Source of the DNA: an uncultured Planctomycetia bacterium
Lineage (GTDB): Bacteria > Planctomycetota > Planctomycetia > Pirellulales > Thermoguttaceae
Length of the DNA: 64,000 nucleotides
NCBI GenBank assembly: GCA_963719885.1
Contig: CAVRDP010000030.1
Location: 66,250-130,249 of the forward strand
Direction of reading: 5' to 3'
Part shown: piece after piece, positions 4,988 to 55,736 of the stretch
Layout of the letters: every line of letters starts with the position of its first letter
Numbering within the stretch: position 1 is the stretch's first letter
Position numbers and translations under genes: made by a program
The notes under the pieces: generated by a model
What the model was told of the DNA's origin: nothing
Database searches by the model: none
Seen by the model: the letters and a program-made list of their open reading frames with translations, nothing else

Positions 4988-5122
4988 GTAGTTCTTTAGC
5001 TAAGTGAAGTAAACCGCGGATTGCACGGATAACGCGGATATTTTCACAGATTGGCGAATTCCAGTGTATCCGCGGAATCCGCGTCATCCGCGGTCAATCA
5101 TTTCAGACGGCGTAACAGTTAC
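4988..5122. repeat. CCGCGGAT-rich ~135-nt imperfect palindromic element, copy A
   Basis: AACCGCGGATTGCACGGATAACGCGGATA ... ATCCGCGGAATCCGCGTCATCCGCGGT, with flanking arms TTTAGCTAAGTGAAGT / CATTTCAGACGGCGTAACAGTTAC. Aligns along its whole length with 5455-5601. Confidence 0.75.
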
Positions 5123-26462: not shown

Positions 26463-26845
26463 GCCCCCTTCCGTTGGGGTTTCTTATGGCGGCCTAGCGG
26501 TCTATTAACCTATCTCTAATCTACCAGAAAATCGTATCGTCCACCAGGATACAATATTTTGGTACACAATCCTATCCGCGCAAACAACAGGCTTCAAGCA
26601 TTCGCCGGATTTCCTCGGGGACGATTTGGGGGGTTACAGGGATAGTTTCGACCCGGGTGCCAAGTTCCTGGTAGTAATTCAGGAGGCGAACCGTTCTTGG
26701 GGAAAAATGGCCAATTTTCTCAACGACGCGTCACATTCTCGAGTAGGTCCCCTTGCCGAGAGGACTAATCTGCCGGGGGGCCAGGTGAAAAACTCCAAGT
26801 TCCCCGGCGGAACCTCGCACAATAGTCCCTCCCGGCAGGAGAGAC

Positions 26846-27953
26846 CTACTCGCCGCAGGTTTCCGCCAACTCGCGAAGATACTCGATCGCTTCATCCAAT
26901 TCCGAGGTCTCGATGCCCCGTTGTCGGCCATTGCGATCGCAGCGGGCTAGGAGTTTCAGCTCTTCGAAGTCTTCCGATGTCTCCAGCCGCCGCCGTGCGC
27001 GGAGGCCCAAGGCGCCGTCGAGTAGTTCCTGACCTTCGATATGGTGGGCGATGAACCAGGCAGTCCGCGGCGTGATATGCTCTGCCAGGGCCTCCAGGCC
27101 GGCGGCCACGTGGTCCTGGCGGTCGATCGCCTTGCCGACGTCGTGCAAGAGGGCCGCCAGCAGAAACTCTTCGTCGTACGGTAGTTCATCGCGGGCCAGA
27201 TCAAAGACCTGGAGGCTGTGATACAAGGCGTCGCCTTCGGGATGATACTGCGGGCTTTCCTTGACGTTCTCCAGGGGCAACAACAGCATCTCGTAGATCT
27301 GGAAGCGGTCGATCCGGCTTTCGGCCTCCAGGACCGACTGGTCGAGCGAGATGCCCGGATACTCCCGGGCCAGCAGTTGCTCGAGCTCGGCAATGCTGGC
27401 CCGTTCGATGGCCTTGCCGGTGATCGAGCTCTTGAAGACGTAATGGGCCTTGTCGCCGGGATAGATGGTCAGCTCGAAGGGGAAGCGGTCGAGGACGTGG
27501 ATGTGGACGAAGATCCGCTCTTCGCCATGTTTGCGGACCTGCTTGCGCTCGACCTCATAGGAAAAGCCCTGCTCGTCGAGGACGGCGGCCACCGACTCAA
27601 CGCTGTCGGAAAAGACGTGCAAGTCGATGTCGGAGCCGCGGCGGACGTGGCCGGTCAGGGTGCTGCCGATGAGCCGGGGCCGGAAGGTTCTTGAGAATCC
27701 GCATCATGCGGAGGGCCTCGAGGCGCATGTCGCGGAGGTTTTCCGTCCGCCGCTGGCCTTCGTGAAGTTGCGCCCAGACCTGGATCTGGTCGCGGATTTC
27801 GCGGTTGCTGGGCAGGTCGCTGGGCTTGAAGTCGCCGCGCGTGATGCGCCGGGCCGCTTTGAGTTTTGCGCGGAAGTACTCGGTTTCCTCGCGCTCGTAC
27901 ATCAGCCGGGCGGCATCGCAAGCCACCTGGCGACGGATCTTGTCGCTGGACAT
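26846..27953 (-). CDS. Nucleotidyltransferase-domain plus HD-domain protein; one frameshift as assembled (GGGG run 27676-27679)
   Basis: ATG at 27953 (MSSDKIRRQV...). RLIGSTLTGHVRRGSDIDLHVF is the NTase motif. HPEGDALYHSLQV...LLHDVGK is the HD motif. Built from ORFs 27597..28274 and 26846..27622. Confidence 0.7.
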
Positions 27954-28189
27954 CCTTTGGCGCCGTACATGAGCGGCGCACGGTACTGGGAATTGGAGAC
28001 GGGTATACTTGGAGCATACACGCGCCGTGGCGGAAAGGCAAGTGCGGGCTGCGAAATCGGCCCAGTTGAAACGGATTGAATTCCGTCCTACGATAATTGG
28101 ACAGTGATAACTCGGTATTCGATCCAGACCCCAACCGCCTTGCGCGGTTGGTGAATCAGGTTGACGGCTAACGAGGCTCCCGGGAAATG

Positions 28190-28242
28190 TCTCTCCTTTC
28201 CCACGCCTGCCGCCGGAGGCGGCAGGCGTGGGAAAGGAGAGA
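28190..28242. repeat. Perfect 25-bp inverted repeat with 3-nt loop
   Basis: TCTCTCCTTTCCCACGCCTGCCGCC-gga-GGCGGCAGGCGTGGGAAAGGAGAGA. Lies in the divergent intergenic region between the HD-domain gene and glpK. Confidence 0.9.
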
Positions 28243-28343
28243 CGGGGATCGTCGGCAATTCCTATAGCTGCCAACGTGATTCACCATCCAGGCAAGCTGG
28301 ATGGGGTCTTTCCAGGCATTTCACAGGACCCCAACTCGCCGCT

Positions 28344-37168: not shown

Positions 37169-37221
37169 GTACGTCAGGCTTTCCAGCCTGACTGTCTGTC
37201 AGGCTGGAAAGCCTGTCGTAC
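37169..37221. repeat. CAGGCTTTCCAGCCTGAC-type palindromic element
   Basis: GTACGTCAGGCTTTCCAGCCTGAC-tgtct-GTCAGGCTGGAAAGCCTGTCGTAC. Lies in the cbiL-cbiF gap. Confidence 0.85.
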
Positions 37222-38751
37222 TACGGCCCTTTGGCTTGAACGATCAAGATCGATAAATACCCCGCCTCGTTGGGCAACCCCTGCAAGCGACGCACGTCGG
37301 TTTCCACCTGTTGTTGCGGCATGCCGGCACGCGACACGAAGATCGTCTGCTCCAATAGGCTGCGGGTTTCCAGTTCGTCGAGGACCCGCGCCAGGCGCCG
37401 TCCGACTTTCATCAAGACGACGGTGCCGCCACGGTCCAGCGCGGCGGTGAACTGATCGAGATCGTCCGAGGCCGGAACGACCGTCAGCAATTGTTTGCCT
37501 TCCCCTAGCGGCTGGTTTGTCAGGGCGGCCGCCGCGCTGAAGGCCGTCACCCCCGGCACCGTGACGACCTGCAGGGCTGGTTCGATCGCCCGCAACTCGC
37601 GCAGCAGGTAGATATAAGTCGAGTAGAGCAGGGCGTCGCCGAGGGTCAGGAAACAGCAATCCTCGCCGCGGGCCAGAATCTCGTGGACTTCCCGCGCAGC
37701 CCGCTGCCAGTTTTCCCGCAACACGCCCGGGTCGGCAGTCATGGGATAGGCCTGCTCGTGTACGACTGCATCCGGCCGAAGATAGCTGCGGGCGATCTCC
37801 AAGGCCACGCTATCGGCCGCCAAGGCCGATTTGGGCACGCACACGTGCCGGCAGGTCGAAAGGATGCGGACGGCCTTGACGGTCATCCATTCCGGATCGC
37901 CCGGGCCCACGCCGATGCCGTAAAGGGTTCCAAAATCACCCTTTCCCGCCTGCCTGTAGGGAACGTCCTCTGTGGCGTTCCATGACGGGGTCGAATGCCC
38001 TTTATCCGGAACGCCACGGAGGGCGTTCCCTACAGGCGTCTCCCCTCGCTGCAAACCGCCCTCACCCCGACCATGGGTACATGGTGCCCGCCCTCTCCCG
38101 AGTACGGGAGAGGGGAGCTTGCGAATAAGAAGCACGATCGACAGTGAAGCGGCGTCGATCTGGCCGAGTTGTTCGGGCGCAATCTGCTGAAAACGTTCGC
38201 TGTCGAGAGTCAAGTTTTCGGCGAGAAACGCAGCATGGCTGGCATGCAAGGCGCTGGCCATGCCAGCCGACCAGCGGATGGCCTCCGCCGTGCCGGCGAG
38301 GATGGCGATCTTGTCGGCGTCGAGCGAGATCGTCCGCGGTGATGTTCGGAATTCGCCCATGGGCGCTCAGGATGCGGGCATCGGCCCAATCCAGCCCGAG
38401 CCGGGCAAAGGCCACCTGTACCGAACTGACGGCCGGAACGACTTCGCATTGCTCCCGGCCGAAGCGTTGGATCACATTCTGCGCGAGACTGTGCAGTCCC
38501 GGATCGCCGCTGACCAGCACGGCGATCCTCTGCCCGGCCGTGCGCCGCGTCGCAATCTGCTCCAGGAGTGCGGCGATATCGGTCTCGACGAGGATTCTCT
38601 CCGCGGGGCAATCGGGAAACAGTTCCAGGAGGCGCTGGCCGCCCACGAGGACGTCGGCCCGGGCGACCGCCTGCCGCGCGGCCTCGGTGACATACTCGGC
38701 CGAACCCGGCCCGCAGCCGACGATCGAGAGCGGGGGTGTGTTCATTGCCAT
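37221..38751 (-). CDS. cbiE/cbiL: Apparent CbiE-CbiL fusion (cobalt-precorrin-7 C5-methyltransferase + cobalt-factor II C20-methyltransferase); one frameshift in the CbiE part (~38305)
   Basis: ATG at 38751 (MAMNTPPLSIVGCGPGSAEY...VLVSGDPGLHS...ILSAHGR). After the frame switch it reads DADKIAILAGTAEAI...SIVLLIRK. A ~65-aa repeat-derived linker follows. Then CbiL (TLYGIGVGPGDPEWMTVKAVRIL...LTLGDALLYSTY...VPGVTAF). No stop codon and no ATG/GTG separates the two enzymes. Confidence 0.8.
37953..38036. repeat. GTAGGGAACGCC...GGCGTTCCCTAC palindromic element (intragenic)
   Basis: CCTGTAGGGAACGTCCTCTGTGGCGTTCC ... GGAACGCCACGGAGGGCGTTCCCTACAGG. 84 nt. Same family as 44342-44423. Confidence 0.85.
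38059..38117. repeat. CCCTCACCCC / CCTCTCCCGAGTACGGGAGAGG hairpin element (intragenic)
   Basis: CCCTCACCCCGACCATGGGTACATGGTGCCCGCCCTCTCCCGAGTACGGGAGAGGGGAG. Relatives at 13488-13535, 51293-51329, 53353-53391, 54084-54137 and 54185-54215. Confidence 0.8.
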
Positions 38752-38781: not shown

Positions 38782-38870
38782 AGTACAGGCACACTCCGTG
38801 TGCCGTCCGCCCGGCGGCGTCAGCCGCAGGTTTTTTCAAAGCGGACGGCACGCGGAGCGTGCCTGCTACT
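38782..38870. repeat. AGCAGGCACACTCCGTGTGCCGTCCGC palindromic element (intergenic cbiD-cbiE)
   Basis: AGTACAGGCACACTCCGTGTGCCGTCCGC ... GCGGACGGCACGCGGAGCGTGCCTGCTACT. Same family as 46513-46620. Confidence 0.85.
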
Positions 38871-38883
38871 TTGGTGGCCGTCT

Positions 38884-39942
38884 TTATTTCCATGGCGCAA
38901 GATCTCCATCGGTTCCCAGGCACTCGCCCGCCATGTCGATGAGGAACACAGCCACGGGGAGAGGCTGGGCAATTCGGCAGGCTACCGCCAATCGCACGCG
39001 CTTGGCCAGTTCCGCGGCCAGCGCCGTTTTTTCGGGCATCGCTAGCGCGGAAAAAACGCCTTCGGCGGTGGTGCTGTCCGGGGCCGGATGCCCGAGGACC
39101 TCGGGGCAGACACGGCTCAAGTAGTGCGTAACCTGGCTGGAGCGCGAGGAATGGGTGTCCCAATAGCCTGCCGCGAGTTTGGCCAGCTTGCCGGGATGTC
39201 CCAGAAGCATTACGGCCCGAAAGGTATGCCGGGACAACAGGTCCAGCACGAAGCCCCATTCGTTGCCCGTCTCGATCACCTGCTCCTCGCGGAGCGAGAA
39301 ATGGCGTCGAGCGGCACCCGCACCGATGTTGCCGGGCACGAGGACTGGGGCCGTCACCTGGCAGGCCGCGGCCACGTCGAGCGTACACTTCAGGGCATCC
39401 TGCAAGGCCAGGGCACAATAGGGACGGACGATGCCGGTGGTGCCCAGGATCGACAGTCCGCCTTCGATCCCCAGCCGCGGATTGAAGGTCTTGGCGGCAA
39501 TTTCCCTTCCGCCGGGCACACTGATTTCCACGCGGACGCCGCGGGCGGTAATCTCACGGATGGCCGCCACAATCATCCGTCGCGGGACTGGATTGATGGC
39601 CGGCTCGCCCGGCGGGACCTGGAGCCCCGGTTTGGTGACGGTGCCGACGCCGTCGCCGGCCACGAAGGTCACACCGGCGCCGTCGTCCCAGGAAAGCCGA
39701 ACTTGTAATTCCAAGCCATGCGTCACGTCCGGGTCGTCGCCGGCGTCTTTGCGAACGGCTGCCGTCGCGGCCGCGGGATCCTGCTCGGATTGTACGTAAA
39801 GGATCGGCACGCAGATCGCCTCTCCCGCCGGCAACCGCAGCTCGACCTCGCGCGGCGCGCTCTGGCCAACTAGAAGGGAGGCCGCTGCCTTGGCAGCCGC
39901 GGCAGCACAGGTCCCCGTTGTAATGCCCCGCCGCAGGTTCAT
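38884..39942 (-). CDS. cbiD: Cobalt-precorrin-5B C1-methyltransferase
   Basis: ATG at 39942 (ATGA overlap with the cbiO stop). MNLRRGITTGTCAAAAAKAA...GDGVGTVTKPGL...GGLSILGTTGIVRP. Intact. Confidence 0.9.
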   Translation of the reverse strand: MNLRRGITTGTCAAAAAKAAASLLVGQSAPREVELRLPAGEAICVPILYVQSEQDPAAATAAVRKDAGDDPDVTHGLELQVRLSWDDGAGVTFVAGDGVGTVTKPGLQVPPGEPAINPVPRRMIVAAIREITARGVRVEISVPGGREIAAKTFNPRLGIEGGLSILGTTGIVRPYCALALQDALKCTLDVAAACQVTAPVLVPGNIGAGAARRHFSLREEQVIETGNEWGFVLDLLSRHTFRAVMLLGHPGKLAKLAAGYWDTHSSRSSQVTHYLSRVCPEVLGHPAPDSTTAEGVFSALAMPEKTALAAELAKRVRLAVACRIAQPLPVAVFLIDMAGECLGTDGDLAPWK

Positions 39943-40841
39943 GGCCGGTCTCCTTCTCGTGCGGCAATCTGCCCCACATCGTCTGTAGCCAGCCACTGGC
40001 GGATCTGTTGCTCCGCCTCGGCCACGGTCAAAGGGATCGTACCGACCGGCAGCCCATTGCGGTCTTGAAGCTGGTGGAACAACTGGGCAACCAGCGGAAT
40101 CCGCAGGCCGGCCTGGGCGACTCGTTGGGGATCGGCAAGGACTTCATGCGGGATGCCTTCCTGCCACACGCTTCCCCGGGCAAGAACATAAATGCGGTCG
40201 GCCAGGACGGGCAGCAAATCCACGCAGTGGGTTGCGATGATCAACGTGACATTCTGTTGGCGATTGAGCTGGACAAGAAGGTCGATCATCTGCGATTCGC
40301 CCACCGGATCCAGGCCCGCGGTCGGCTCGTCCAGCAGCAAAATCTCCGCTTGCATGGCAAGCACGCCGGCCAAACAGACGCGTTTCTGTTGGCCGTAGCT
40401 GAGATGGTGGATCGGACGCTTGCCCAGCGCGAGGGCATCGACCGCGGCCAGCGATTGCTCGACGCGATCGGCCACCTCGGCCTCGGAAAGCCCCTGGTTG
40501 CGTGGACCGAAGGCCACGTCCTCTTCCACCGAGGCTGCGAAAAGCTGGTCGGCCGGATTCTGGAAAACCATACCCACCCGGCGGTACAGTTCGCTCTGTC
40601 GCAGGTTGCCAGCGTCGTCCGCTCCCAGAAGCACTTCCCCGCGCTCGGGCTGGAGCAGGCGCATGAGCACCTTCAAGAGGGTTGTCTTGCCCGAGCCGTT
40701 GGCACCCATGACGGCCACGAGTTCGCCCTCCAACGCGCGGAAGGAAAGGTCCACGAGCGCCTGAATTCCGCCGGGATATGCGAAAGAGACGTTTCGGGCT
40801 TCGATGGCTGTTGGGCCGATAATGCGATTCACAGAGGCCAC
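39939..40841 (-). CDS. cbiO: Cobalt ECF transporter ATPase
   Basis: Walker A GANGSGKTT, signature LSYGQQKRV, Walker B ILLLDEPTAGLD. Overlaps the cbiQ stop. Confidence 0.9.
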   Translation of the reverse strand: MASVNRIIGPTAIEARNVSFAYPGGIQALVDLSFRALEGELVAVMGANGSGKTTLLKVLMRLLQPERGEVLLGADDAGNLRQSELYRRVGMVFQNPADQLFAASVEEDVAFGPRNQGLSEAEVADRVEQSLAAVDALALGKRPIHHLSYGQQKRVCLAGVLAMQAEILLLDEPTAGLDPVGESQMIDLLVQLNRQQNVTLIIATHCVDLLPVLADRIYVLARGSVWQEGIPHEVLADPQRVAQAGLRIPLVAQLFHQLQDRNGLPVGTIPLTVAEAEQQIRQWLATDDVGQIAAREGDRP

Positions 40842-41615: not shown

Positions 41616-41638
41616 GATCGCCTTCTTAGAAAAGAAGA

Positions 41639-41678
41639 TGGTAGAAAGGAAAATGAGTTCATTTTCCTTTCTACCATT
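41639..41678. repeat. AT-rich perfect 19-bp palindrome in the cbiN-cbiQ gap
   Basis: ATGGTAGAAAGGAAAATGA-gt-TCATTTTCCTTTCTACCAT, followed by further TTTTCCTTTCT repeats. Confidence 0.9.
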
Positions 41679-41687
41679 TTCCTTTCT

Positions 41688-41924
41688 TCAATCTTCCTTT
41701 TGCTTCTTGCTAACTTCGTTTGCGGCCCGTTTTCGCGGTGGGAAGAGCCCGCGGAACGTGTAACCGATGATGAACCCGCCGATCACGCCGGCCAGCAGGA
41801 ACATGAAGAGCAGCAAGTCGCCTTGCTCGGTATTGATATAGGGCTCCCGCGCCGGGTGCCCGGCATCGGCGGCCACCTTTTCTACCAAATCGTCCAGGCC
41901 TTGCCAATTCGTCGCGTAGATCAT
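41688..41924 (-). CDS. cbiN: CbiN-like small cobalt-transport membrane protein
   Basis: ATG at 41924 (ATGA overlap with the cbiM stop). ...QGDLLLFMFLLAGVIGGFIIGYTF resembles the CbiN C-terminal helix. Position between cbiM and cbiQ fits. Confidence 0.65.
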   Translation of the reverse strand: MIYATNWQGLDDLVEKVAADAGHPAREPYINTEQGDLLLFMFLLAGVIGGFIIGYTFRGLFPPRKRAANEVSKKQKED

Positions 41925-42694
41925 GCGTCGGCTCCTGTGGGTTGCTCCAAACCGGCACCGGCTTCGAGCGATTCCAGCGGGAGGCAATCGTCGCGGCCAA
42001 CATCGGGATCAAGATTGTGCGAATCCGCGCGTACCCCGAGCAAGTCTGGCCGGCGGTTCAGGACAAAACGGTAAGCCAAAGCCGTGACCACCCCCTCGGC
42101 AATGCCCAGGGGAACTTGCGTGGGAGCGAACAAGGCGATCATAAAGGCGAACATGCCCCAAAAGGAACCATGGTTGCGCAGGACCGCGGCGAGTTCCACG
42201 GAGGTCATGGCGTAGGTAGCCCAGTCGGAGGCGATCCCGGCTGCCAGTGCAGCGGCGAAGATCGGGACCCTCATCCTCCGCAGAACATGAAACAGGCCAT
42301 AAGCGCTAAAGGCCCCGACCACGCCCATGGATACGATATTCCCGCCCAAGGTCGTCAATCCGCCATGGGCCAGGAACAGGGCTTGAAACAGGAGGGCGAT
42401 GCTGGCCACGACGACTGTCGGCCCCGGGCCGATCAAGAGGGCCCCCAGGCCCGTGCCGCAGGGATGTGAGCACGTGCCGTGTTGGCTGAGCGAAGGAATG
42501 GGTATGGGCGTGCAGGAGATGACGAAGATTGCCGCTCCCACCATTGCCACCAGGGTCATGGCGCGGGGATCTTCCCTGCGCCGCCGATCGATGGTCCGCA
42601 ACCCCCAGAAGACGAAAGGCGCCGCCACCAGGAACCACAGGCTCGCCCAGTCGATCGGCAGGATTCCTTCGGAGATGTGCATGGCATAAAGCAT
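41921..42694 (-). CDS. cbiM: Cobalt ECF transporter substrate-capture component
   Basis: GAGGAG upstream of the ATG at 42694. MLYAMHISEGILP contains the conserved MHIxEG N-terminus. Multi-TM. Confidence 0.85.
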   Translation of the reverse strand: MLYAMHISEGILPIDWASLWFLVAAPFVFWGLRTIDRRRREDPRAMTLVAMVGAAIFVISCTPIPIPSLSQHGTCSHPCGTGLGALLIGPGPTVVVASIALLFQALFLAHGGLTTLGGNIVSMGVVGAFSAYGLFHVLRRMRVPIFAAALAAGIASDWATYAMTSVELAAVLRNHGSFWGMFAFMIALFAPTQVPLGIAEGVVTALAYRFVLNRRPDLLGVRADSHNLDPDVGRDDCLPLESLEAGAGLEQPTGADA

Positions 42695-42696
42695 AA

Positions 42697-43699
42697 TTAT
42701 TTCTCCTCGCCGAGCGTGGCCAGGGCGTTGACGGCCGCCGCCGCCACCGAGCTGCCGCCGCGCGGGCTGGTGTTGGTAATCGAACAAAGGTCGCTCTCCC
42801 ATAACGCCAGTTTCGATTCCCTGGCGCCGACGAAGCCGACAGGCAGCCCGACGACCAGGGCCGGACGATGGCCGCCGTTGCGGGCGAGTTCCATGACTTT
42901 CCAGAGCGCGGTCGGCGCGTTTCCGATGGCCACGATCGCGCCCTCGATACGCGGCGCCAGCAGTTCCATGGCCGCCGCCGCCCGCGTACATCCCCTGCTT
43001 CGGGCCAAGGCGGCGACCTCGGGGCGATCGAGCGCAGCAGAGGATTTCGCCGCGGACCTTCGTCATACCCGCCTGGAGCATCTTGACATCGCAGACGATC
43101 GGCTTGCCTGCGGCCAATGCCGCAAGCCCACGCTGGATGGCCTGCGGATGAATCCGCAGCGTGCGGGCGAAGGAGATATCGGCCGTGGCATGGACCACGC
43201 GGCGAACAATTCGCCGCGCCCCGGTATCGGCGGGACCCCAATCGCCAAGTTGCCGGTCGATGATCTCGTAGCTTCGCCGCTCGATGGCCGCTCCGTCGCT
43301 CGGTAGGCATGGGCTGCTATCCGTGTATGGCGTGAGCCGTTCCACCAGCAAGTCCTCTAGCGCAGGATCGTTTTCCAGCGTGGGCAGCAGTTCCAGCGCG
43401 ACCTGCGGGCATCGCCGGCGGCACTCATCCAAGAGCGCGGGAATATCGACGGTCACATGCTGGCCGGAATAAAGAAAATAGGGCATCGAGAAGACGCGAC
43501 GCACTCCGCCAGCCGCCATGGCAAGCACCTGATCTGGGATATCGGGTCGGGTAATGGAAAAGAAGGCCGGTGCCACCTCAGCCCCTTGCAATCGCGATGC
43601 CACGCGCGCGACCATGGCCTGAAAGCCCTGGTTTGCCTCGGCACGAGGGCTGCCATGACTGATAATAAGGATGCCGGTTGCGTTTGCCGCGTCGCTCAT
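42697..43699 (-). CDS. cbiX/cbiC: Apparent CbiX(small)-CbiC fusion (sirohydrochlorin cobaltochelatase + cobalt-precorrin-8 methylmutase); one frameshift in the CbiC part (~43030)
   Basis: N-terminus ILIISHGSPRAEANQGF...MPYFLYSGQHV (CbiX). Then IERRSYEIIDRQL...VVHATADISF...IVCDVKMLQAGM (CbiC). After the frame switch the reading continues in ORF 42697..43008 (GAIVAIGNAPTAL...PALVVGLPVGFVGARESK). Confidence 0.8.
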
Positions 43700-45133
43700 G
43701 GTCGTTTCTCACAGCAAGAGAGGAAGTGGTGAATTGCCTCGGGCCGGGATGCCCAATGCAGGTGTACGTAGCCGGCCAAAACCCGTCCCCGGCAAAACCC
43801 TTCCAGGGCGGGTTCGGCCCGTCGGCGGCAAACCGTGTAAGCCGGTTGCCAACCGCCCGCCGGGCCATCTTGGGTGGTGATTTGCGGAATAATGGAACTC
43901 GTGTCCGCGTACGATCTCTTCCGCCGCTCCCCATAGCGAATCGGCTGCCCACTGGATCTCCGTATAGCCCAGCACCTTGAGCTTCTCCAGCATGGCCGTC
44001 TCGATGGGCAACACGCCGGCCAACAGATACCGCACGCCGTCCAAGGTGGTCAGGGCTTGGCCAAGGTACATCAGCCCGCCACACTCGGCATAGACGAGGC
44101 CTCCCGCGGCGGCGAACTCGCGGACGGCGGCCAACATTCCCAAGTTAGCGCTCAAGCGGGCGGCATGGACCTCGGGATAACCGCCGCCGAAGTAAAGCCC
44201 ATCCAGCTCCGCGGGCAGGCCCACGTCGGCCAGTGGCGAGAACGGCACCCACTGGACGCCGGCCCGCGCCAGCGATTCCAAGTTGTCGGGATAGTAGAAG
44301 TGGAAGGCTTCGTCCCGGGCAATTCCCAGGCGGAGGTTGGCCTGTAGGGAACGCCCTCCGTGGCGTTCCGAATTAGGGGCGATCGTCTCCTTCACGGAAC
44401 GCCGCGGAGGGCGTTCCCTACAGTCGTGACACACGTCGCCGCTCCCCGCCAATTCCAAAATCGCCGGCACGTCCAGGTATTGACCACAGGCATCGGCCAA
44501 CTGATCGAGGATTCCGGCCGAAAGGTTCGCTTGCTCGGCGGTCACCAACCCCAAATGCCGGCTAGGCAACGTGGGCAGCGATCCGCGGGGCAACATGCCC
44601 ACCAGCGGTGGCGATGAGGCACCCGCCAACGATTCCGACAGCCAGGCGCGGTGCCGCTCGGAGCCGCCCTGGTTGGCGATCACCCCCGCCACGCGGACGC
44701 CCGGCTCGAAGCGGGCAAAACCTTGGACCGTCGCCGCCAGGCTGCGGGCCGCTCCATGCGCATTGACCACCAACAGCACCGGTGCGTCGAGCCACAGCGC
44801 GATCTCGGCCGTACTACCCTCGAGAGTGCTTGGCGAAGCGCCGTCGAACATGCCCATCACGCCTTCGATAATCGCGAGGTCGGCATCGGCCGTTGCCCGC
44901 ACGAACAACTCGCACACATATTCGCGCGAGGTCATCCATCCGTCGAGGTTGTAGCAGGTGCGGCCGGAGGCCATGGCCAGGTAACTCGGGTCGAGGAAGT
45001 CGGGCCCGACTTTGAAGGTCTGCACGCGCAATCCTTGTCGCACAAGCCGCCGTGCCAGTCCCAGCGCAAGTGACGTCTTTCCCACGCCACTGCCGGTTCC
45101 GGCAATCACCAGTCGGGGACAAACGGAACTCAT
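43696..45133 (-). CDS. cbiA: Cobyrinate a,c-diamide synthase; one frameshift as assembled (~43890) and an in-frame repeat insertion
   Basis: ATG at 45133 (MSSVCPRLVIAGTGSGVGKTSLALGL...FKVGPDFLDPSY). GATase part has IARDEAFHFYYPDN...YAECGGLMYL...RGHEFHYS. The true C-terminus lies in another frame (GWQPAYTV...LEGFCRGRVLAGYVHLHWASRPEAIHHF) and ends at a TGA overlapping the cbiX ATG. Confidence 0.85.
44342..44423. repeat. GTAGGGAACGCC...GGCGTTCCCTAC palindromic element inside cbiA
   Basis: CTGTAGGGAACGCCCTCCGTGGCGTTCCG ... CGGAACGCCGCGGAGGGCGTTCCCTACAG. Translated in frame as RERPPRRSVKETIAPNSERHGGRSLQ. Confidence 0.85.
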
Positions 45134-45657
45134 CGCTCGACTCCTTCCTGGGCGGCCCGCCCGGCTTGCAGGCCGTGCTTGAGGCATCGCATTTCCGTGA
45201 CGGTATCGGCCAAGGCGATCAAGGCGGGAGTCGCGTAGCGGCCCGTGAGCACCAGGCACGTCTCCGGCGGGGCCTGGGCCAGGAGTTCCGCCACTTCGTG
45301 TTCCTCAAGCAATCCACGGGCGACGGCCAGACAGATCTCGTCGAGGATTACCAGCGGGAACTGCCCACGGGCCAGGATTTCCGCCGCCTTGCGCAAGCCG
45401 GTTTGCGCCGCCGCCCGATGCTCGACGAAACGCGGATCATCGACCGGTGGCAGGAATCCCAGCCCCGTCGTATGGATCTCAATGTTCGCGGAAGCCGCCG
45501 CGGCGGCAACTTCGCCTACGGACGTGTCGCTCTTGATGAACTGGATGACGTTGGACCGCAGGCCATGACCGCTGGCGCGGAAAGCCATGCCCAAGGCGGC
45601 CGTGGTCTTGCCCTTGCCGTCGCCCGTGAAAATCAGGATCCGCGGTTTCTGGCTCAT
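45130..45657 (-). CDS. cobO: Cob(I)yrinic acid a,c-diamide adenosyltransferase
   Basis: ATG at 45657 (ATGA overlap with the cbiB stop). ILIFTGDGKGKTTAALGMAFRASGHG...VIQFIK...LVILDEI...LVLTGR. Intact. Confidence 0.9.
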   Translation of the reverse strand: MSQKPRILIFTGDGKGKTTAALGMAFRASGHGLRSNVIQFIKSDTSVGEVAAAAASANIEIHTTGLGFLPPVDDPRFVEHRAAAQTGLRKAAEILARGQFPLVILDEICLAVARGLLEEHEVAELLAQAPPETCLVLTGRYATPALIALADTVTEMRCLKHGLQAGRAAQEGVER

Positions 45658-46748
45658 GCGCTGGTCCCCCACACTTGCCATAGATTTACTGCCCCCGCCC
45701 GCAGCAGCAGGCATGCCACCAGAAACAACGCGCTGGTCCACAGCATCGAGAGAGTGGCGCACACGATGTGGCACCGCGACAAGGGCATGAGCGGGTCGCC
45801 GATCGTGGGCTTTTCCAGCGGCTGGCCGTCGTAATAATTCACCCCGCCCAACTGCACGCCCAGGGCGCCGGCCATGGCGGCTTCAGCGAGACCGGCGTTC
45901 GGACTGGCGTGCTTCCGCCCGTCTCGGAGCAGGATGCGTAGCGCGTGCCGCGCCGAGAGGATCGAAGCCCGCGCCGCCGCCAGGCACATCAAAGGGGCCG
46001 TGAGCCGGGCGGGGAGATAGTTGGCCAAATCGTCGATCCGCGCCGCCGCCCAGCCGAAATGCCGGTAGCGGTCATCCTGGTGCCCGAACATCGAATCCAG
46101 CGTGTTCACCGCCCGATAGACCATCGCCCCTACGGGACCGGCAATCGCGGCGAAGAACAGCGGGGCCGTCACTCCGTCCACCGTGCTCTCGGCGACGCTT
46201 TCCACGGCGGCCCGGACCACGCCTGCTTCGTCGAGTTGCTGCGTGTCGCGGCCGACGATTTTCGCGACCCGTCGCCGGGCCTCGTCGAGGTCGCTGGCAA
46301 CCAAGGCACTAAAGACCGCCATGCTATGCCGGGCCAGGTCGTGCGCGGCAATGGTCATGTAGATAACGAAGATCGACACCGCATCGGCCGCCCACGGATG
46401 CACCGCGGCCGCTAGATGAATCGCTGCCCACGTTGCCAGGCCAACCAGAATATACGTAGTGAGCGCCGCCAACAGGCCTGCAATTCGCGTCGCCTCCGCC
46501 TGGCACAAGAAAGGTAGCAGGCACACTCCGTGTGCCGTCCGCCCTACTGCCCCAGCCAAAGGTTCATTTTCAGAAGCCGAAGGCTGCTGGCGGACGGCAC
46601 ACGGAGTGTGCCTGCTACTTTGCCGCGACAAAGTTTCCAGCCAAAGCGCCAGCCGCCCGATGCCGCGGACCGGGTGCGGCAACCATCGCGGATCACCGAG
46701 GATCAGGTCGATGGCAAAGGCACTCAGGATTTGATATTCGAGTCTCAT
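45654..46748 (-). CDS. cbiB: Adenosylcobinamide-phosphate synthase, with an in-frame ~36-codon repeat insertion
   Basis: AIDLILGDPRWLPHPVRGIGRL...IVGRDT...ESTVDGVTAPLFF...YRAVNTLDSMFGH...ARIDDLANYLPARL...SPNAG. Frame intact. Confidence 0.9.
   Translation of the reverse strand: MRLEYQILSAFAIDLILGDPRWLPHPVRGIGRLALWLETLSRQSSRHTPCAVRQQPSASENEPLAGAVGRTAHGVCLLPFLCQAEATRIAGLLAALTTYILVGLATWAAIHLAAAVHPWAADAVSIFVIYMTIAAHDLARHSMAVFSALVASDLDEARRRVAKIVGRDTQQLDEAGVVRAAVESVAESTVDGVTAPLFFAAIAGPVGAMVYRAVNTLDSMFGHQDDRYRHFGWAAARIDDLANYLPARLTAPLMCLAAARASILSARHALRILLRDGRKHASPNAGLAEAAMAGALGVQLGGVNYYDGQPLEKPTIGDPLMPLSRCHIVCATLSMLWTSALFLVACLLLRAGAVNLWQVWGTSA
46513..46620. repeat. AGCAGGCACACTCCGTGTGCCGTCCGCC palindromic element inside cbiB
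   Basis: GGTAGCAGGCACACTCCGTGTGCCGTCCGCC ... GGCGGACGGCACACGGAGTGTGCCTGCTACT. 108 nt. Translated as SSRHTPCAVRQ...GRTAHGVCLL. Confidence 0.9.
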
Positions 46749-49438
46749 CAGAAACCCATAAGCCGGTAGACTTCGTCCATTCGTATACTCTCACGCACCA
46801 CTTCCGCCAGGCGATCCAAGGCCGGCTCGATGTCGTAGCGGCCGATCACCTTTCCCACGGGCGCTAGGCCGCGCCGCACGCGCAAACCATCGATGAACCA
46901 GCGGCGGAAGGCGTCGCAATCGAACAGACCGTGCAGGTACGTACCCCAAACTCTATGACCATGGTCGGCAATGCCGATGGTCTGGCCGTCGTCGCGAGTT
47001 ATCATCGGATCACAATCGTCAAAGATTGTTTGCCCGTGATGGATCTCGTAGCCGCTCAGTCTGAAGCCGGAAAGGAGATGCCGGGCGGTGGTCGCGACCA
47101 GCGTTTTCTCGGCTGCCATCACCGTGTCGGCGGCGAGCAGTCCCAACCCGCGGGAGTACCCGTGGGATTTCTCGCCCGCCGATTCGATGCCAAGTGGGTC
47201 GCGGATTTCGCGGCCCAGCATCTGCAGTCCGCCGCAAATTCCGATGACCTCCCCCCTGCCCTCCCGGGCCAAGGCGGTTATCCGCTCGGCCAATCCGCTG
47301 CGACGGAGATAATCCAGGTCGCCCAACGTGTTCTTGCTGCCGGGGATGATTACGGCATCCGGGGAATTCAGGTCCGCCGCGGTGCGAATGATTCGCAACC
47401 GCACGTCAGATTCCGTGCGGAAGGCGTCGAAATCGGTGAAGTTCGCGATGTGCGGCAAGTCGAGCACCGCGATCTCGACGGCGTCTTCGTTTCCGGCCGC
47501 TTGATCGAGCGCGCCGCTCTTGAATTCGACCGAATCTTCCTGGGGAAGACCGAGTTGGGCAAGATACGGTACCACGCCGAACACGGGCCGGCCTGTGTGC
47601 CGCAACGTATAGTCCAGCGCGGGACCCAGCAAACTTGCGTCGCCGCGAAAACGATTGACGACCCAGCCGGCGACCCGCTTGCGTTCCCAGGGGGCAAGCA
47701 CTTCCATCGTGCCGACGAACGAAGCAAACACGCCGCCGCGATCGATGTCGCCGACTACGAGCACGGGGGCGGCCGCATACTCGGCCATCCGCATGTTGAC
47801 GATGTCATGACTCTTCAGGTTCACTTCGCCGGGCGAGCCGGCGCCCTCCAAGACCATCGCGTCGAACTCCTCAGCCAGCGAGTCGTAGCACTGTTTTGCG
47901 GCGGCAAAGGCCTGCGGCTTGTAGGCTACGTACTCGCCGACTCGCATGTTTCCCACGGGCTTGCCCCGCACAATGACCTGGCAGCCGGTGTCCGAATTGG
48001 GTTTGAGGAGGATGGGGTTCATCCGCACATCGGGCTCCAGGCGGCAGGCCTGGGCCTGTACGACCTGGGCGCGGCCCATCTCGCCGCCGTTGCGGTCAAT
48101 GAACGAATTGAGCGACATGTTTTGGGCCTTGAACGGCGCCACGCGGATGCCGTCCTGGAACAGAATCCGGCATAAGGCCGCCGTCAACACGCTCTTGCCG
48201 GCATTGGAACTCGTGCCTTGAAGCATGAGGGCCGGCGTCTGCCGACATTTGCAAAATGAATTTGCACGATTTGCGTAGGGTGGGACAAGATCCGGGGTAC
48301 CCGCGCCGTGGGTCGGCGAGCGCCGGCCCACCAATTCTTGCGGTTGGTGGGCCGGCGCTCGCTGCGCGATCTTGTCCCACCCTACGATTTGCTCCAGAGC
48401 CTCGCACAGCCGGCAGTTCTCTTCCTCCGTGCGCACGGCTACGCGGAAGAATCGGGTGTCGAGGTGTTGCTCCTCGTCGAAGGTGCGGATGGCAATGCCC
48501 TCGCGAAGCAGGTGATCGGCCAGATCCGAAGCCTGCATGTCGGTTCGATCCAACCGGACCAGGAGAAAGTTCGTGACGCTGGGGTAAACATGCAGCCCGG
48601 AAAGCTTCATCAGTTTCGCGGTCAGCCGCGTCCGCTGCTGGTCGACCAGGGCTATGCTCTGTCGTGCGTAGTCTTCATCGGAGAGCAAATCGATCGCAGC
48701 CTCTTGCGCCAAAACACTCACCGACCAAGGCAGGATTTGGCCTCGGATCTGCCGGACGGCCTCCGGGCAGGCCACCGCATAGCCAACGCGCAGTCCGGGG
48801 ACCGCGTAGAACTTCGTCAGCGAGCGCACGACGATCACGTTGGACGCGGTCCGCCCGGCCAAAGATGCGTAGCCCTCGATGAAATCAGCGAAGGCCTCAT
48901 CGACGACAAACGTGGTGGCGCGATGCCGGGCGGCCAGCCCGCAAAGTGCATCGCCATCCAGTGCCCGGCCCGTGGGATTGTTCGGTTGACCGAGGAGCAC
49001 GAGATCTTGTTCGCGAAGTTGACCTTCCAACGCGTGCCAGTCGAGGGCAAAGTCCTCGCTTTCCTTCAACTTCAAGAAAGAGACTTCACGGCCGGCCGCC
49101 CGCACCGCCGCGGCGTAGTCGGTGTACGAGGGCACGGGGATGACCGCGCGGGCGAAGGAAAGGGCCCGCGCCAAGGCGAAGAGAAGTTCCGTCGAGCCGT
49201 TACCGACGACGACCTGCTCTTCGGCCACGTGGTGTCGCCGTGCCAGGAACTCGACGAGGTCGCTGCAGTCGGGATCGGGATAATGCACGATCCGGTCGAT
49301 GTTCCGCGTCAGTGCCGCCCGCAGACCATCGGGTGGGCCCAGCGGATTGATGCTGGCGCTGAAATCGAGGATTTGGTCCTGGCCCCGTCCGGCCCGTTGG
49401 GCCAACTCATGCAGGTTTCCGCCGTGTGTATTTGCCAT
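46748..49438 (-). CDS. cobD/cobQ: Apparent fusion of L-threonine-phosphate decarboxylase (CobD, Salmonella naming) and cobyric acid synthase (CobQ/CbiP)
   Basis: Single intact 896-aa ORF. N-terminus is aminotransferase class I/II-like (HGGNL...NPLGPP...PNNPTGR...[15 protein letters not shown]). A linker encoded by a nested palindrome follows. Then [14 protein letters not shown]...KPNS...[10 protein letters not shown]...YEIHHG (CobQ). Confidence 0.85.
48274..48384. repeat. Nested palindromic element (111 nt) at the cobD/cobQ junction
   Basis: Outer arms GTAGGGTGGGACAAGATC / GATCTTGTCCCACCCTAC. Inner arms GCGAGCGCCGGCCCACCAA / TTGGTGGGCCGGCGCTCGC. Confidence 0.9.
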
Positions 49439-53414: not shown

Positions 53415-53660
53415 CATCCTTTTTTGGTGTCCTGACTTTCGGGTCGTCCTACTCGCTACGGCCTTCCCATCCCCACGAGGACAGTGGCCAACATTGCAGC
53501 TTTCGTCGCCGATCACAGTGGCGGGGCCGTGCCGGATTTTCACCAGCTTCCCTGCTTTCCGCTTGCAGTTGGTGAGGCAGATTGAACCGTCATCAGTCGG
53601 AGAGCGCCAGCGCGCTGACCCCTCGATCACGGGGCAACAGCCGCCGAAACTCAAGCGGAA
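53415..53660 (-). promoter_or_regulatory. Cobalamin riboswitch (controls the cob operon)
   Basis: Minus strand reads GCAGGGAAGCTGGTGAAAATCCGGCACGGCCCCGCCACTGTGA ... CCACTG...GGGAAGGCCG ... AGTCAGGACACC (B12-box-like). These match the conserved core as I know it (Rfam RF00174). Confidence 0.8.
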
Positions 53661-53701: not shown

Positions 53702-53739
53702 GCGGGTGCGGCGGGCCGGCCGATTCGGCTCTTGCCCTC

Positions 53740-53767
53740 TTGACGCCGATTCGCGGCATGGTACACT
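53740..53767 (+). promoter_or_regulatory. Sigma70-like promoter for the peptide/rSAM operon leader
   Basis: TTGACG-N16-TACACT. 38 bp from the divergent promoter. Confidence 0.5.
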
Positions 53768-53769
53768 GG

Positions 53770-54000
53770 AGGCGGTTTCAGCATCTCGGAACACGGTGCA
53801 AGTCCGTGGCTGTCCCGCAACTGTAATCGGCGAGGCGACTCACTTAGAACCTATCCCAGAACCCTGAGATGGCCCTGGAGTGCATCGGGCTCAATCCGGT
53901 TCCAGGATAGGTTCTCAGGCCCCCGCCGGCCACTGCCGCGATGCATCGCGGTGGGAAGGCCGTGAGCCGCCAACGACCCGCAGCCAGTAGACCTGCTGAT
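53770..54000 (+). promoter_or_regulatory. Cobalamin riboswitch (controls the peptide/radical-SAM/S51 operon)
   Basis: GGAACACGGTGCAAGTCCGTGGCTGTCCCGCAACTGTAA (53788-53826), CCACTGCCGCGATGCATCGCGGTGGGAAGGC (53930-53960), and B12 box GCCAGTAGACCTGC (53983-53996). A long stem insert (AGAACCTATCC...GGATAGGTTCT) lies in the variable region. Confidence 0.8.
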
Positions 54001-54041
54001 GCCACGCACGCAACGTGAATCTGATGGTAAAGGATTCCGAT

Positions 54042-54077: not shown

Positions 54078-54156
54078 CCGCACCCTTCACCCCTGCCCCT
54101 CTCCCTTCCTGTCGTACGACAGGCGGGCAAGGGGAAAACTTAAGAAAGAGAGAAAC

Positions 54157-54300
54157 ATGAAGAAGACACCGAAACTGCCCTCATCCCCTGCCCCTCTCCC
54201 CAAGAGAGAGGGGAGCGACGTGATCGCCTATCGCAAGACGTGCAAGGCCACGGGCACCGGCCTGTCGCACTACATCTTGATGGACAAGAAAGCGAAGTGA
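54157..54300 (+). CDS. Short peptide ORF (47 aa from ATG 54157, or 26 aa from GTG 54220): candidate precursor peptide
   Basis: MKKTPKLPSSPAPLPKREGSDVIAYRKTCKATGTGLSHYILMDKKAK. Its TGA shares a base with the ATG of the radical SAM gene (TGATG at 54298-54302). The alternative GTG at 54220 has GAGGGGAG 5 nt upstream. Confidence 0.55.
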   Translation: MKKTPKLPSSPAPLPKREGSDVIAYRKTCKATGTGLSHYILMDKKAK

Positions 54301-55736
54301 TGGCGCGTGCCAAGCACCTGCGCGGTGCCCCCCAGCAGAGTGCCGGCGTACCGGCCCCTTCCCGGGGCCGGTACGTCGGTACGGGCAATGGTCCGGCCTT
54401 CCAGCCGATCGACATCGGCCACCCCGAGTACGTGGCCGTCATCGAAGCGGAGACGGCTTTTTGGGCATTGGTCCGCCGCGAGAAGTTGGCCTCGGCGGCC
54501 CTCGAGGGCGAATTGGTCAAGTCCTTCCGCAAGAAGGCTTCGCTGTTCGCCAAAGAAATAGAAACGCTCCGTTTCGGCCTGAAACCGTCGGCCGTGTATT
54601 TCAATCCGACGGAGCGCTGCAACTTGAATTGTGCCTACTGCTATATCCCGGAAGACATGCGCCGCGCGGGACAGCACATGTCGGGCGAGAAACTCTTGGA
54701 ATCGTTGGCGATTCTCAAACGCTACTTCCGCACGACGGTTCCCAAGGGCACGCTGCCGCAGATCGTCTTCCACGGCGCCGAGCCGCTGCTGAATCGCGAG
54801 GCTGTATTTGCCGGGATCGAGCGGTTTGCCGACGACTTCCGCTTCGGCATCCAAACCAATGCCACGCTCCTCGATGAATCGGCCATCGAATTCCTCCGCG
54901 GCCACCAGGTCAGCATCGGCATTTCGCTCGATGCGCCTACGGCTGCCATTGCCGACCGCACACGAAGCAACTGGGAAGGCCAAGGGGTTTTCCCACAGGT
55001 CGTCCAGGCGATGGACCGGCTCAAGGGCTACCCGGGCTGGAGCGTGATTTGCACGGTCTCCACGGAAAACCTGCGGCACCTGACGAAGCTCGTCGATTTC
55101 TTCCACAAGCACGAGGTGCCCACCTGCCTGATGAACATTCTCCGCTGCACGCTGCCCCGCTCGCGGAGCGTGAAACCGGCCGATGCGCCGGCGGCAAAGT
55201 ACTTCTTGAAGGCCCTCGATCGCACGCACGCGTTATACAAGAAGACCGGGCGGAAGCTGATCGTGGGCAATTTCGCCAACATCTTGCTGGCCATTATCGC
55301 TCCGGCGTCGCGGCGGCTGATGTGCGACATCTCGCCCTGCGGCGGTGGCCGCTGCTTCTTCGCCTTGGCCCCCAACGGCGACCTCTTCCCCTGCAGCGAG
55401 TTCATCGGCTTGCAGTCGTTCTGCGGCGGCAACCTGTTTCGTGACGATATTCCGAATGTGCTCCAGAGCGGGCCTTTCCAATTGGTCACCGGCCGGAAGA
55501 TCGAGGACATCGATCCTTGCCGGCGTTGTGCCATCCGGCACTTCTGCGGCGCGCCTTGTCCGGCCGAGGCCCACGAAATGAACGGCCGTATGGAAAAGAC
55601 CGGCGCCTTTTGCGAATTCTACGAGGAACAGGTCCGCTATGCCTTCCGCCTCATTGCCGACGAGAAGGTCAACGACTACCTCTGGGACGATTGGGACCAA
55701 GGCCTGCGGCAGACGTTCGCAAGTGGCACATCCTAG
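54300..55736 (+). CDS. Radical SAM enzyme with C-terminal SPASM-type Cys-rich domain (putative peptide maturase)
   Basis: 478-aa intact ORF. CNLNCAYCY (54618-54641). GAEPLL. C-terminal CDISPCGGGRCFFALAPNGDLFPCSEF and CRRCAIRHFCGAPCPAEA. ~95-aa N-terminal extension before the radical SAM core. Confidence 0.85.
   Translation: MARAKHLRGAPQQSAGVPAPSRGRYVGTGNGPAFQPIDIGHPEYVAVIEAETAFWALVRREKLASAALEGELVKSFRKKASLFAKEIETLRFGLKPSAVYFNPTERCNLNCAYCYIPEDMRRAGQHMSGEKLLESLAILKRYFRTTVPKGTLPQIVFHGAEPLLNREAVFAGIERFADDFRFGIQTNATLLDESAIEFLRGHQVSIGISLDAPTAAIADRTRSNWEGQGVFPQVVQAMDRLKGYPGWSVICTVSTENLRHLTKLVDFFHKHEVPTCLMNILRCTLPRSRSVKPADAPAAKYFLKALDRTHALYKKTGRKLIVGNFANILLAIIAPASRRLMCDISPCGGGRCFFALAPNGDLFPCSEFIGLQSFCGGNLFRDDIPNVLQSGPFQLVTGRKIEDIDPCRRCAIRHFCGAPCPAEAHEMNGRMEKTGAFCEFYEEQVRYAFRLIADEKVNDYLWDDWDQGLRQTFASGTS

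Follow-up and report, generated by a model that had tools for sequence, protein, structure and literature searches.

Why should a gene encoding two enzymes of the cobalamin pathway carry a long palindrome exactly where its two halves meet? The question arises in a stretch of 64,000 nucleotides from an uncultured Planctomycetia bacterium (assembly GCA_963719885.1, contig CAVRDP010000030.1, positions 66,250 to 130,249), hereafter the window, in which an open reading frame (ORF) of 896 amino acids fuses CobD to CobQ around a 111-nt nested palindrome. An earlier reading of this DNA, the original prediction, regarded the palindrome as forming the junction and suggested that its transcript could pause ribosomes or provide an internal site of processing or translation initiation. 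Our analysis favors a different answer: the palindrome is very probably an in-frame insertion of a dimer of GTAG-headed repetitive extragenic palindromes (REPs), similar to a REP doublet forming hairpin (REPIN), and is tolerated in the native linker of an ancestral bifunctional enzyme.

According to this explanation, the palindrome belongs to a mobile but non-autonomous repeat that is dispersed in planctomycetes and consists of two inverted GTAG-headed REP units. This copy would have inserted as exactly 111 nt, with no target duplication, into a linker that already separated the two domains of an ancestral CobD-CobQ gene. It would have survived there by virtue of a length that is a multiple of three, a stop-free reading frame, and a flexible linker tolerating 37 residues rich in Gly, Pro, Arg, and Ala. 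Mobilization would have occurred through a single-stranded intermediate and a REP-associated tyrosine transposase (RAYT; HUH/Y1 type), and the stable mRNA hairpin would be a by-product of element structure rather than an evolved regulatory device.

A palindrome inside an older gene fusion

The gene, its domains, and the element are arranged as follows (window coordinates):

46748-49438, minus strand: bifunctional CobD (L-threonine-O-3-phosphate decarboxylase)-CobQ (cobyric acid synthase), 896 aa, from the ORF and domain models
48395-49426, minus strand: CobD domain, aa 5-348 (TIGR01140, 330.7 bits, cut-off 290.55; PF00155)
46757-48232, minus strand: CobQ domain, aa 403-894, CbiA-type ATPase plus GATase_3 (NF001989, 605.8 bits; TIGR00313, PF01656, PF07685)
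48233-48274, minus strand: remainder of the native linker on the CobQ side, A+T-rich; the linker minus the element equals the modal 31 aa
48275-48385, no strand assigned: REPIN-like element, candidate GTAG-REP dimer with heads outward, aa 352-388 on the minus strand; aligns with 36 copies from other genomes
48275-48334, plus strand: REP unit 1, 60 nt, GTAG head plus GGTGGGACAAGATC, 23-nt module CGGGGTACCCGCGCCGTGGGTCG (48293-48315), and GCGAGCGCCGGCCCACCAA, from the copy alignment
48335-48343, no strand assigned: central loop or spacer TTCTTGCGG, variable in the family, as spacers differ in sequence and length among copies
48344-48385, minus strand: REP unit 2, canonical, about 41 nt, GTAGGGTGGGACAAGATCGCGCAGCGAGCGCCGGCCCACCAA on the minus strand; within-arm hairpin, 90% of cells paired, four covarying pairs
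48266-48274, plus strand: left flanking direct repeat ACGATTTGC, of which 7 nt (GATTTGC) lie strictly outside the element; not a family feature
48384-48392, plus strand: right flanking direct repeat ACGATTTGC, overlapping the last two bases of the element

The original prediction of a single 896-aa ORF with both domains is borne out, with TIGR01140 matching at model positions 1-330 of 331 and NF001989 at 2-479 of 480, both above their curated cut-offs. The same holds for the in-frame, stop-free position of the palindrome between CobD (aa 5-348) and CobQ (aa 403-894), at aa 352-388. The nested palindrome GTAGGG...CCCTAC itself is real and spans 48275-48385 (111 nt, 37 codons, no stop in frame), one base to the right of the 48274-48384 previously given. 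Its outer arms (CGTAGGGTGGGACAAGATC at 48274-48292 and GATCTTGTCCCACCCTACG at 48368-48386, counting one extra C/G) are 19 nt long and 100% complementary, as are the 19-nt inner arms at 48316-48334 (GCGAGCGCCGGCCCACCAA) and 48344-48362 (TTGGTGGGCCGGCGCTCGC). These repeats are not a product of chance: the outer-arm 18-mer has two matches in the window where shuffles predict 0.01, and the inner arm is likewise observed far above the 0.12 matches expected. The predicted mRNA hairpin is also confirmed in silico, since the sense RNA of 48255-48405 (minus strand) folds at -91 kcal/mol compared to -55.6 +/- 4.3 kcal/mol for shuffled sequences (z = -8.26), and 0 of 200 shuffles fold as stably. What had escaped notice is that the palindrome is one of many copies of a dispersed repeat, that a direct repeat of 7-9 nt flanks it, and that two neighboring cob genes carry similar in-frame palindromes.

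The role of the palindrome as the maker, or a special feature, of the junction did not survive comparison with orthologous loci. Single-ORF CobD-CobQ proteins of about 856-870 aa are encoded in many genomes of several phyla, with orthologous single ORFs at no fewer than 100 loci; holders include Thermoguttaceae, other Planctomycetota, Desulfomonilaceae, Syntrophaceae, Desulfobulbaceae, Brocadiia, Fibrobacterota, Spirochaetes, and others. Dozens of related genomes encode the one-ORF fusion with a linker that is typically short, basic, and non-palindromic (e.g. CEALAAALGVSSRPLPKRRRAAAIMIQGTSS in locus L095), which is the very observation that the original prediction had named as speaking against itself. 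To compare linkers, we determined the spacing between the CobD motif FFRVAVR and the CobQ motif LMxQGT in 121 loci. The spacing is 31 aa in 55 of these and 32 aa in another 33 (88 of 121 together), while the window protein has 68 aa, that is 31 + 37. Excision of exactly 111 nt rejoins the CobD end (CEALEQI) to the CobQ side in frame. Given that single-ORF fusions are widespread and that the linker arithmetic fits a 111-nt insertion, the palindrome did not create the fusion, and comparison of the orthologs indicates that the fusion is the older of the two. The same two observations rule out a scenario in which the insertion generated the fusion from two overlapping genes, the arrangement obtained when 118 nt are deleted.

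The host gene is a natural two-step fusion comparable to other bifunctional cobalamin enzymes, such as CobB/CobC (NCBIfam NF053748). Its two products, aminopropanol phosphate from CobD and cobyric acid from CobQ, both feed CbiB. In contrast to CobB/CobC, no NCBIfam model dedicated to CobD-CobQ is among the matches obtained, and each half matches an equivalog of its own.

Could the insertion instead have inactivated or split the gene, leaving the 896-aa ORF as a recent pseudogene, or could the palindrome be an assembly artefact? The hairpin could hinder translation, palindromes can be prone to assembly errors, and the window protein forms a singleton cluster without a relative of at least 90% identity. 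The best relatives, on metagenome contigs, are 79-80% identical; no contig on record encodes the exact window protein, and no empty site in a near-identical strain was found. Against this, both domains match their models over the full length with scores above the curated cut-offs, no further lesion is seen, the operon, which follows cobalamin riboswitches, is intact, and the insert length is the exact excess over the modal linker. In addition, the same repeat family and similar in-frame inserts appear in many independent assemblies, including contigs of megabase scale. We therefore consider a pseudogene or an artefact extremely unlikely.

A GTAG-headed repeat family of planctomycetes

In a species-representative genome collection, we found the 18-nt arm in more than 94 stretches, nearly all of them from metagenome-assembled genomes (MAGs) of Planctomycetia, Pirellulales, and Thermoguttaceae. 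Copies are often numerous within one MAG, with at least nine loci each in the CAWDQE01, CAVPPL01, and DATLQY01 assemblies. Defining a paired copy as two arms within 200 nt of each other, we obtained 36 further copies of 93-143 nt among the matches listed, and these have both pairs of arms, outer and inner, in common, together with an optional 23-nt module. The family consensus reads GTAGGGTGGGACAAGATCGCGTAGCGAGCGCCGGCCCACCA, followed by a variable spacer of about 5 to 60 nt and then the mirror image; element termini and units of the family conform to GTAGGGTGGGACAAG. The 23-nt module CGGGGTACCCGCGCCGTGGGTCG accounts for the asymmetry of the window copy and is found on one side or the other in about 10 copies; L004, L071, L081, and L087 carry it on the left, and L008, L039, L042, L085, and L086 on the right. 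The closest copy among those listed, L004, stems from a different MAG, is 87% identical, and has the same module layout.

The anatomy of the arm points to a defined class of repeats. Across 46 distinct arms, G1, T2, A3, and G4 of the GTAG head are each conserved in 90% or more, and both ends of the window copy conform to GTAG...CTAC. A lone arm folds with the GTAG unpaired, followed by a two-tier hairpin made of a 6-bp outer stem (GGTGGG/CCCACC) and a 7-bp inner stem. In the same 46 arms, 90.3% of the cells fall in standard pairs, compared to 29-51% when the pairing partners are slid, and four inner-stem pairs display compensatory changes, e.g. GATCGC/GCGAKC, GATTGC/GCAAGC, and GCTCGCC/GGCGAGC. 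The resulting covariation score was reached by 0 of 500 shuffles. Judged by its sequence, the arm has the anatomy of a GTAG-tagged REP, and two such units in inverted orientation form a REPIN-like dimer.

GTAG-REP dimers and REPINs have been characterized in detail (Bertels and Rainey, 2011, PMC3116915; Di Nocera et al., 2013, PMC3733652), and GTAG REPs have been reported in the Planctomycetes-Verrucomicrobia-Chlamydiae (PVC) superphylum (PMC3733652). The window family shares with them the 5' GTAG head, units that are imperfect palindromes, an inverted pair folding as one long hairpin, and a variable spacer. Further hallmarks of this class are heterodimers, tens of copies or more per genome, the absence of target duplication, and a mostly extragenic location with occasional intragenic dimers adding 20-40 residues. 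Unlike described REPs, the unit of the window family is long (41 nt, or 60 nt with the optional apical module) and has a two-tier stem, and the sequence family GTAGGGTGGGACAAGATCGCG...GGCCCACCA matched no described REP family here. Another parallel, in behavior only, is provided by the Rickettsia palindromic elements (RPEs), reportedly described by Ogata and colleagues in Science in 2000, which are palindromic mobile repeats of about 100-150 nt that sit in frame at permissive sites of intact genes and lengthen the encoded protein. RPEs are unrelated in sequence and host lineage; they are A+T-rich and some belong to a CGTC-tagged superfamily, whereas the window element is G+C-rich, GTAG-tagged, and located in an inter-domain linker (lineage, composition, and tag as contrasted from the literature, PMC3733652). 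Intragenic REP dimers encoding 20-30 aa or more have been documented before, for example in Opitutus terrae and as Rickettsia RPEs, with RPE-1, RPE-4, and RPE-6 mentioned (PMC3733652). Searched against Rfam at the gathering threshold, the element (48275-48385) gave no match; the sole hits in the window are two cobalamin riboswitches.

How readily could such an element enter a gene without disrupting it? Most family copies elsewhere lie at the edges of open frames and are thus intergenic. Four of the six reading frames of the window copy are open, closure occurring only where the TAG of a GTAG head is read, and the length of 11 of the 36 copies analysed is divisible by three; a non-disruptive insertion is therefore not a rare outcome. 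Ten long open frames span copies of the family, and among the five on which Pfam was run only L056 proved to be a real gene; the other intragenic candidates (L022, L055, L061, and L090) were discarded as spurious antisense frames. In L056, a tandem ABC ATPase carries a 93-nt copy (5026-5118) in frame between its two ABC_tran domains; the copy occupies aa 305-336 of a 641-aa open frame, and its orientation and frame differ from those of the window copy. Since the L056 copy is read in the other orientation and another frame, the encoded peptide is not conserved and no function at the protein level is indicated. The target-sequence logo holds a single signal, a preference for a pyrimidine at position -1 (53 of 70 ends).

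Probable insertion without target duplication and a proposed source of mobility

Several points weigh against the proposed insertion of a GTAG-REP dimer. With its two-tier stem, the 41-nt unit is at the long end of described REPs. The 64-kb window, the part of the source genome covered, holds one copy of the family. No cognate RAYT flanked by a REP of the window family was found among the loci searched, whole genomes being outside that scope, and a pattern scan for the family head, spaced as expected relative to an NPV-coding motif, returned 59 hits, none adjoining a RAYT ORF. Both the expression of the 896-aa fusion protein and the neutrality of the insert, which is probably harmless, are presumed. 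Finally, the window copy is bounded by a direct repeat, GATTTGC, of 7 nt (9 nt when the end of the element is included), which resembles a target-site duplication.

The last point raises the possibility that the element is a conventional miniature inverted-repeat transposable element (MITE), derived from an insertion sequence (IS) with a DDE transposase. Such a MITE would have generated the 7-9-bp duplication (GATTTGC) upon insertion, and the frame would have been restored later by a compensating indel. An exact 7-mer at both edges has a chance probability of about 6e-5, although ATTTGC occurs four times within 48248-48391, an unusually A+T-rich stretch of linker, and a coincidental match of the flanks is therefore less improbable than 4^-7. 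Bacterial MITEs derived from DDE-type ISs have been reviewed (PMC10969869), and the window element is like them in being small, non-autonomous, bounded by terminal inverted repeats, capable of forming a hairpin, and able to insert in frame; its size of about 100 nt would suit a MITE. Transposase-like ORFs lie between arms at two loci as well.

The evidence from the other copies and from the linker points the other way. A flank repeat of 3 nt or more is found in 0 of the 36 other copies, in contrast to what DDE-derived MITEs would leave behind. Removal of 118 nt breaks the CobD-CobQ frame and implies that the original linker measured 28-29 aa, which is not the case at any of the 121 loci; removal of 111 nt leaves the modal linker of 31 aa. 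The two loci with transposase-like ORFs, L076 and L075 (arms 1.5-1.6 kb apart), were rejected as parent ISs, both being secondary insertions into an element, and no full-length IS sharing the family termini was found. At L076 (471-2030), a Tn5-like IS of the IS4 family with a 468-aa transposase and its own ends (CTGTCATTTATACACAAC) has landed inside a family element. L075 (4453-5939) is a family element with a 70-nt inverted repeat, the loop of which is split by 1.35 kb of unrelated, decayed DNA with helix-turn-helix and GAF-like fragments. Given the lack of flank repeats in the 36 other copies and the secondary nature of L076 and L075, we regard a DDE-type MITE as decidedly unlikely; comparison of the copies and linkers favors a 111-nt insertion without duplication.

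Which enzyme could have moved a GTAG-REP dimer of this kind? The defining partner of a REPIN is a cognate RAYT whose gene has the same REP on its flanks. A motif scan of 94 loci recovered a single RAYT near a family copy, at L040 (Pfam Y1_Tnp, E = 2.4e-7), and this gene is flanked by a different REP. None of its 51 relatives is flanked by the window family either; the planctomycete loci among them are flanked by GTAGGTCCCGCCTGCCGGGCGGGACC and constitute textbook REPtrons of a sister family with the head GTAGGTCCCGCC. RAYTs of Verrucomicrobia carry GTAGGGCGGG REP heads, which are similar and represent another family. The RAYT loci L255-L283 (e.g. L258, L259, L261, and L271) contain Y1_Tnp genes within GTAGGTCCCGCCTGCCGGGCGGGACC REP arrays of up to six tandem units at 28-nt spacing, and one degenerate unit of this type is located in the window at 26825-26849. 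Based on the anatomy of the element, the lack of target duplications, and the presence of RAYT/REP systems in the phylum, we lean slightly towards mobilization by a RAYT (HUH/Y1) transposase.

The hairpin and the repeated use of linkers

Could the hairpin have been retained as a cis-regulatory RNA, selected for pausing during CobD folding, for RNase processing, or for separate translation of CobQ from the downstream ATG? The high stability of the sense-strand structure (-91 kcal/mol, z = -8.3) and its exact position between the two domains would fit such a role. Moreover, several relatives carry hairpin-forming inserts in the same linker, one of which, a related element in L175, is located at the same codon and phase. 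On the other hand, the closest relatives with an empty linker (L177, L178, L179, L181, L095, L096, and L250) and more than 100 fusions do without a hairpin, the inserts of relatives are unrelated in sequence, position, and frame, and the window family is mostly intergenic elsewhere. Internal initiation at the ATG of ALMLQGT, as put forward in the original prediction, is weakened by the conservation of this Met within the N-terminal CobQ motif [MLIVC]xQGT, the first position of which is Met at the great majority of the junctions inspected. Being present in nearly all fusions sampled, the Met is a CobQ residue rather than the hint of an internal start, and reading of the upstream sequence revealed no Shine-Dalgarno-like motif. 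Neither promoter-like nor terminator-like sites were found at the element, which also lacks an Rfam match. As neither the frame nor the orientation in which a copy is read stays the same from gene to gene, no selected function is suggested; a role in pausing, RNA processing, or internal initiation is unsupported, and we judge a selected cis-regulatory hairpin to be very improbable.

The GTAG-REP dimer of the window is not the only palindrome to have entered the CobD-CobQ linker. Linkers expanded to 45 aa or more occur in 11 of the 121 loci, all in the planctomycete clade; they fold considerably more stably than the others (-0.51 vs -0.30 kcal/mol per nt) and carry five or more unrelated palindromes. 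Among these are GTAGGGTGGG-type elements of 78 nt (L175, at exactly the codon and phase of the window element) and 84 nt (L183), a TTGGAGTGCGGCG... palindrome in L176 and L185, and others in L097, L180, L184, and L249. The shared position of the L175 and window elements may reflect common ancestry or a preferred site. The linker of L182 contains a GATTTC/GCAAATC-repeat (GAAATC/GCAAATC) palindrome; in the same linker of the window gene, the A+T-rich stretch with its four ATTTGC motifs around the element is possibly the trace of an older insertion.

Two neighboring genes on the minus strand provide further cases. CbiB (45654-46748) contains a 111-nt, in-frame (37-codon) GTAG-REP dimer of a different family (GTAGCAGGCACACTCCGTGTGCC...) at 46511-46621. 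The dimer lengthens by about 40 residues a loop that in most orthologs comprises just 2-4, and the same loop is interrupted by another insertion in L183. The arm of this dimer was present in eight fetched sequences, seven loci from other sources and the window. In CbiA (43709-45259), an in-frame GTAG-REP dimer (GTAGGGAACGCCCTCCGTGGCGTTCC...) at 44342-44423 occupies the linker between the ATPase (aa 50-236) and GATase_3 (aa 311-461), a position that is expanded by other means in L182, L183, L184, and L097. Both inserts are absent from orthologs, and both repeat families recur in unrelated planctomycete loci.

Since unrelated palindromes have entered the same three sites again and again in sister lineages, and since the window and L175 elements share codon and phase, one might ask whether the linkers and loops of CobD-CobQ, CbiA, and CbiB are preferred sites for the landing or retention of GTAG-REPs, and not merely tolerant ones. 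We consider such a preference unlikely. If true, it would imply site-directed insertion, e.g. into single-stranded or structured DNA, or a benefit of the hairpin or the longer linker, for example in pausing for domain folding.

Additional palindromes and regulatory elements are found in the window. A second copy of the GTAGGGAACG... family (37952-38037), located in the minus-strand open frame 37221-38360, precedes a TP_methylase domain (aa 145-354) by about 10 codons; it may be intragenic, joining an N-terminal segment to the domain, or may precede the true start codon. A diverged second copy of the cbiB-type REP dimer (38782-38869) is intergenic, just downstream of cbiD (38884-39996), and the 402-aa frame that covers it is arginine-rich, has no Pfam match, and looks spurious. 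Two divergent cobalamin riboswitches (RF00174, 82 and 46 bits) are located at 53426-53552 (minus strand), placed to control the cobT-cobS-cobDQ-cbiB-cbiA operon, and at 53737-54014 (plus strand), upstream of a radical-SAM/SPASM gene (54144-55733). A 592-aa ORF at 41921-43699 (minus strand) comprises CbiX (aa 15-119), a CbiC represented only by its first half (aa 139-233, matching positions 2-100 of the 196 in the model), and CbiM (aa 341-553). It is either a fusion of an unusual kind or a gene that suffered a disruption or rearrangement in the CbiC-CbiM interval. Long palindromes of other types are present as well: an A+T-rich one at 41628-41700 (AGAAAAGAAGATGGTAGAAAGG...), GTACGTCAGGCTTTCCAGCCTGAC at 37169-37221, which also occurs in L064 and L250, a third at 28189-28243, where an FGGY kinase ORF has its 5' edge, and a fourth at 54340-54382, which lies within the radical-SAM ORF ahead of the domain.

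For annotation, the 896-aa gene would be best described as a genuine bifunctional CobD-CobQ enzyme with a 37-residue passenger of selfish DNA, the extra residues forming no domain, and the locus as neither a novel junction nor a mis-assembly. The family to which the element would belong is a previously unnamed group of GTAG-REP dimers in Pirellulales and Thermoguttaceae; the kind of event is already known and no new mechanism is involved. A single operon with three in-frame insertions, in two inter-domain linkers and one loop (CbiB), together with sister lineages that were hit independently at the same sites, illustrates cleanly, in a natural setting, which positions of a protein can accept an insertion. 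The variation in linker length among planctomycete proteins may thus owe something to REP-like elements, much as RPEs lengthen proteins in Rickettsia.

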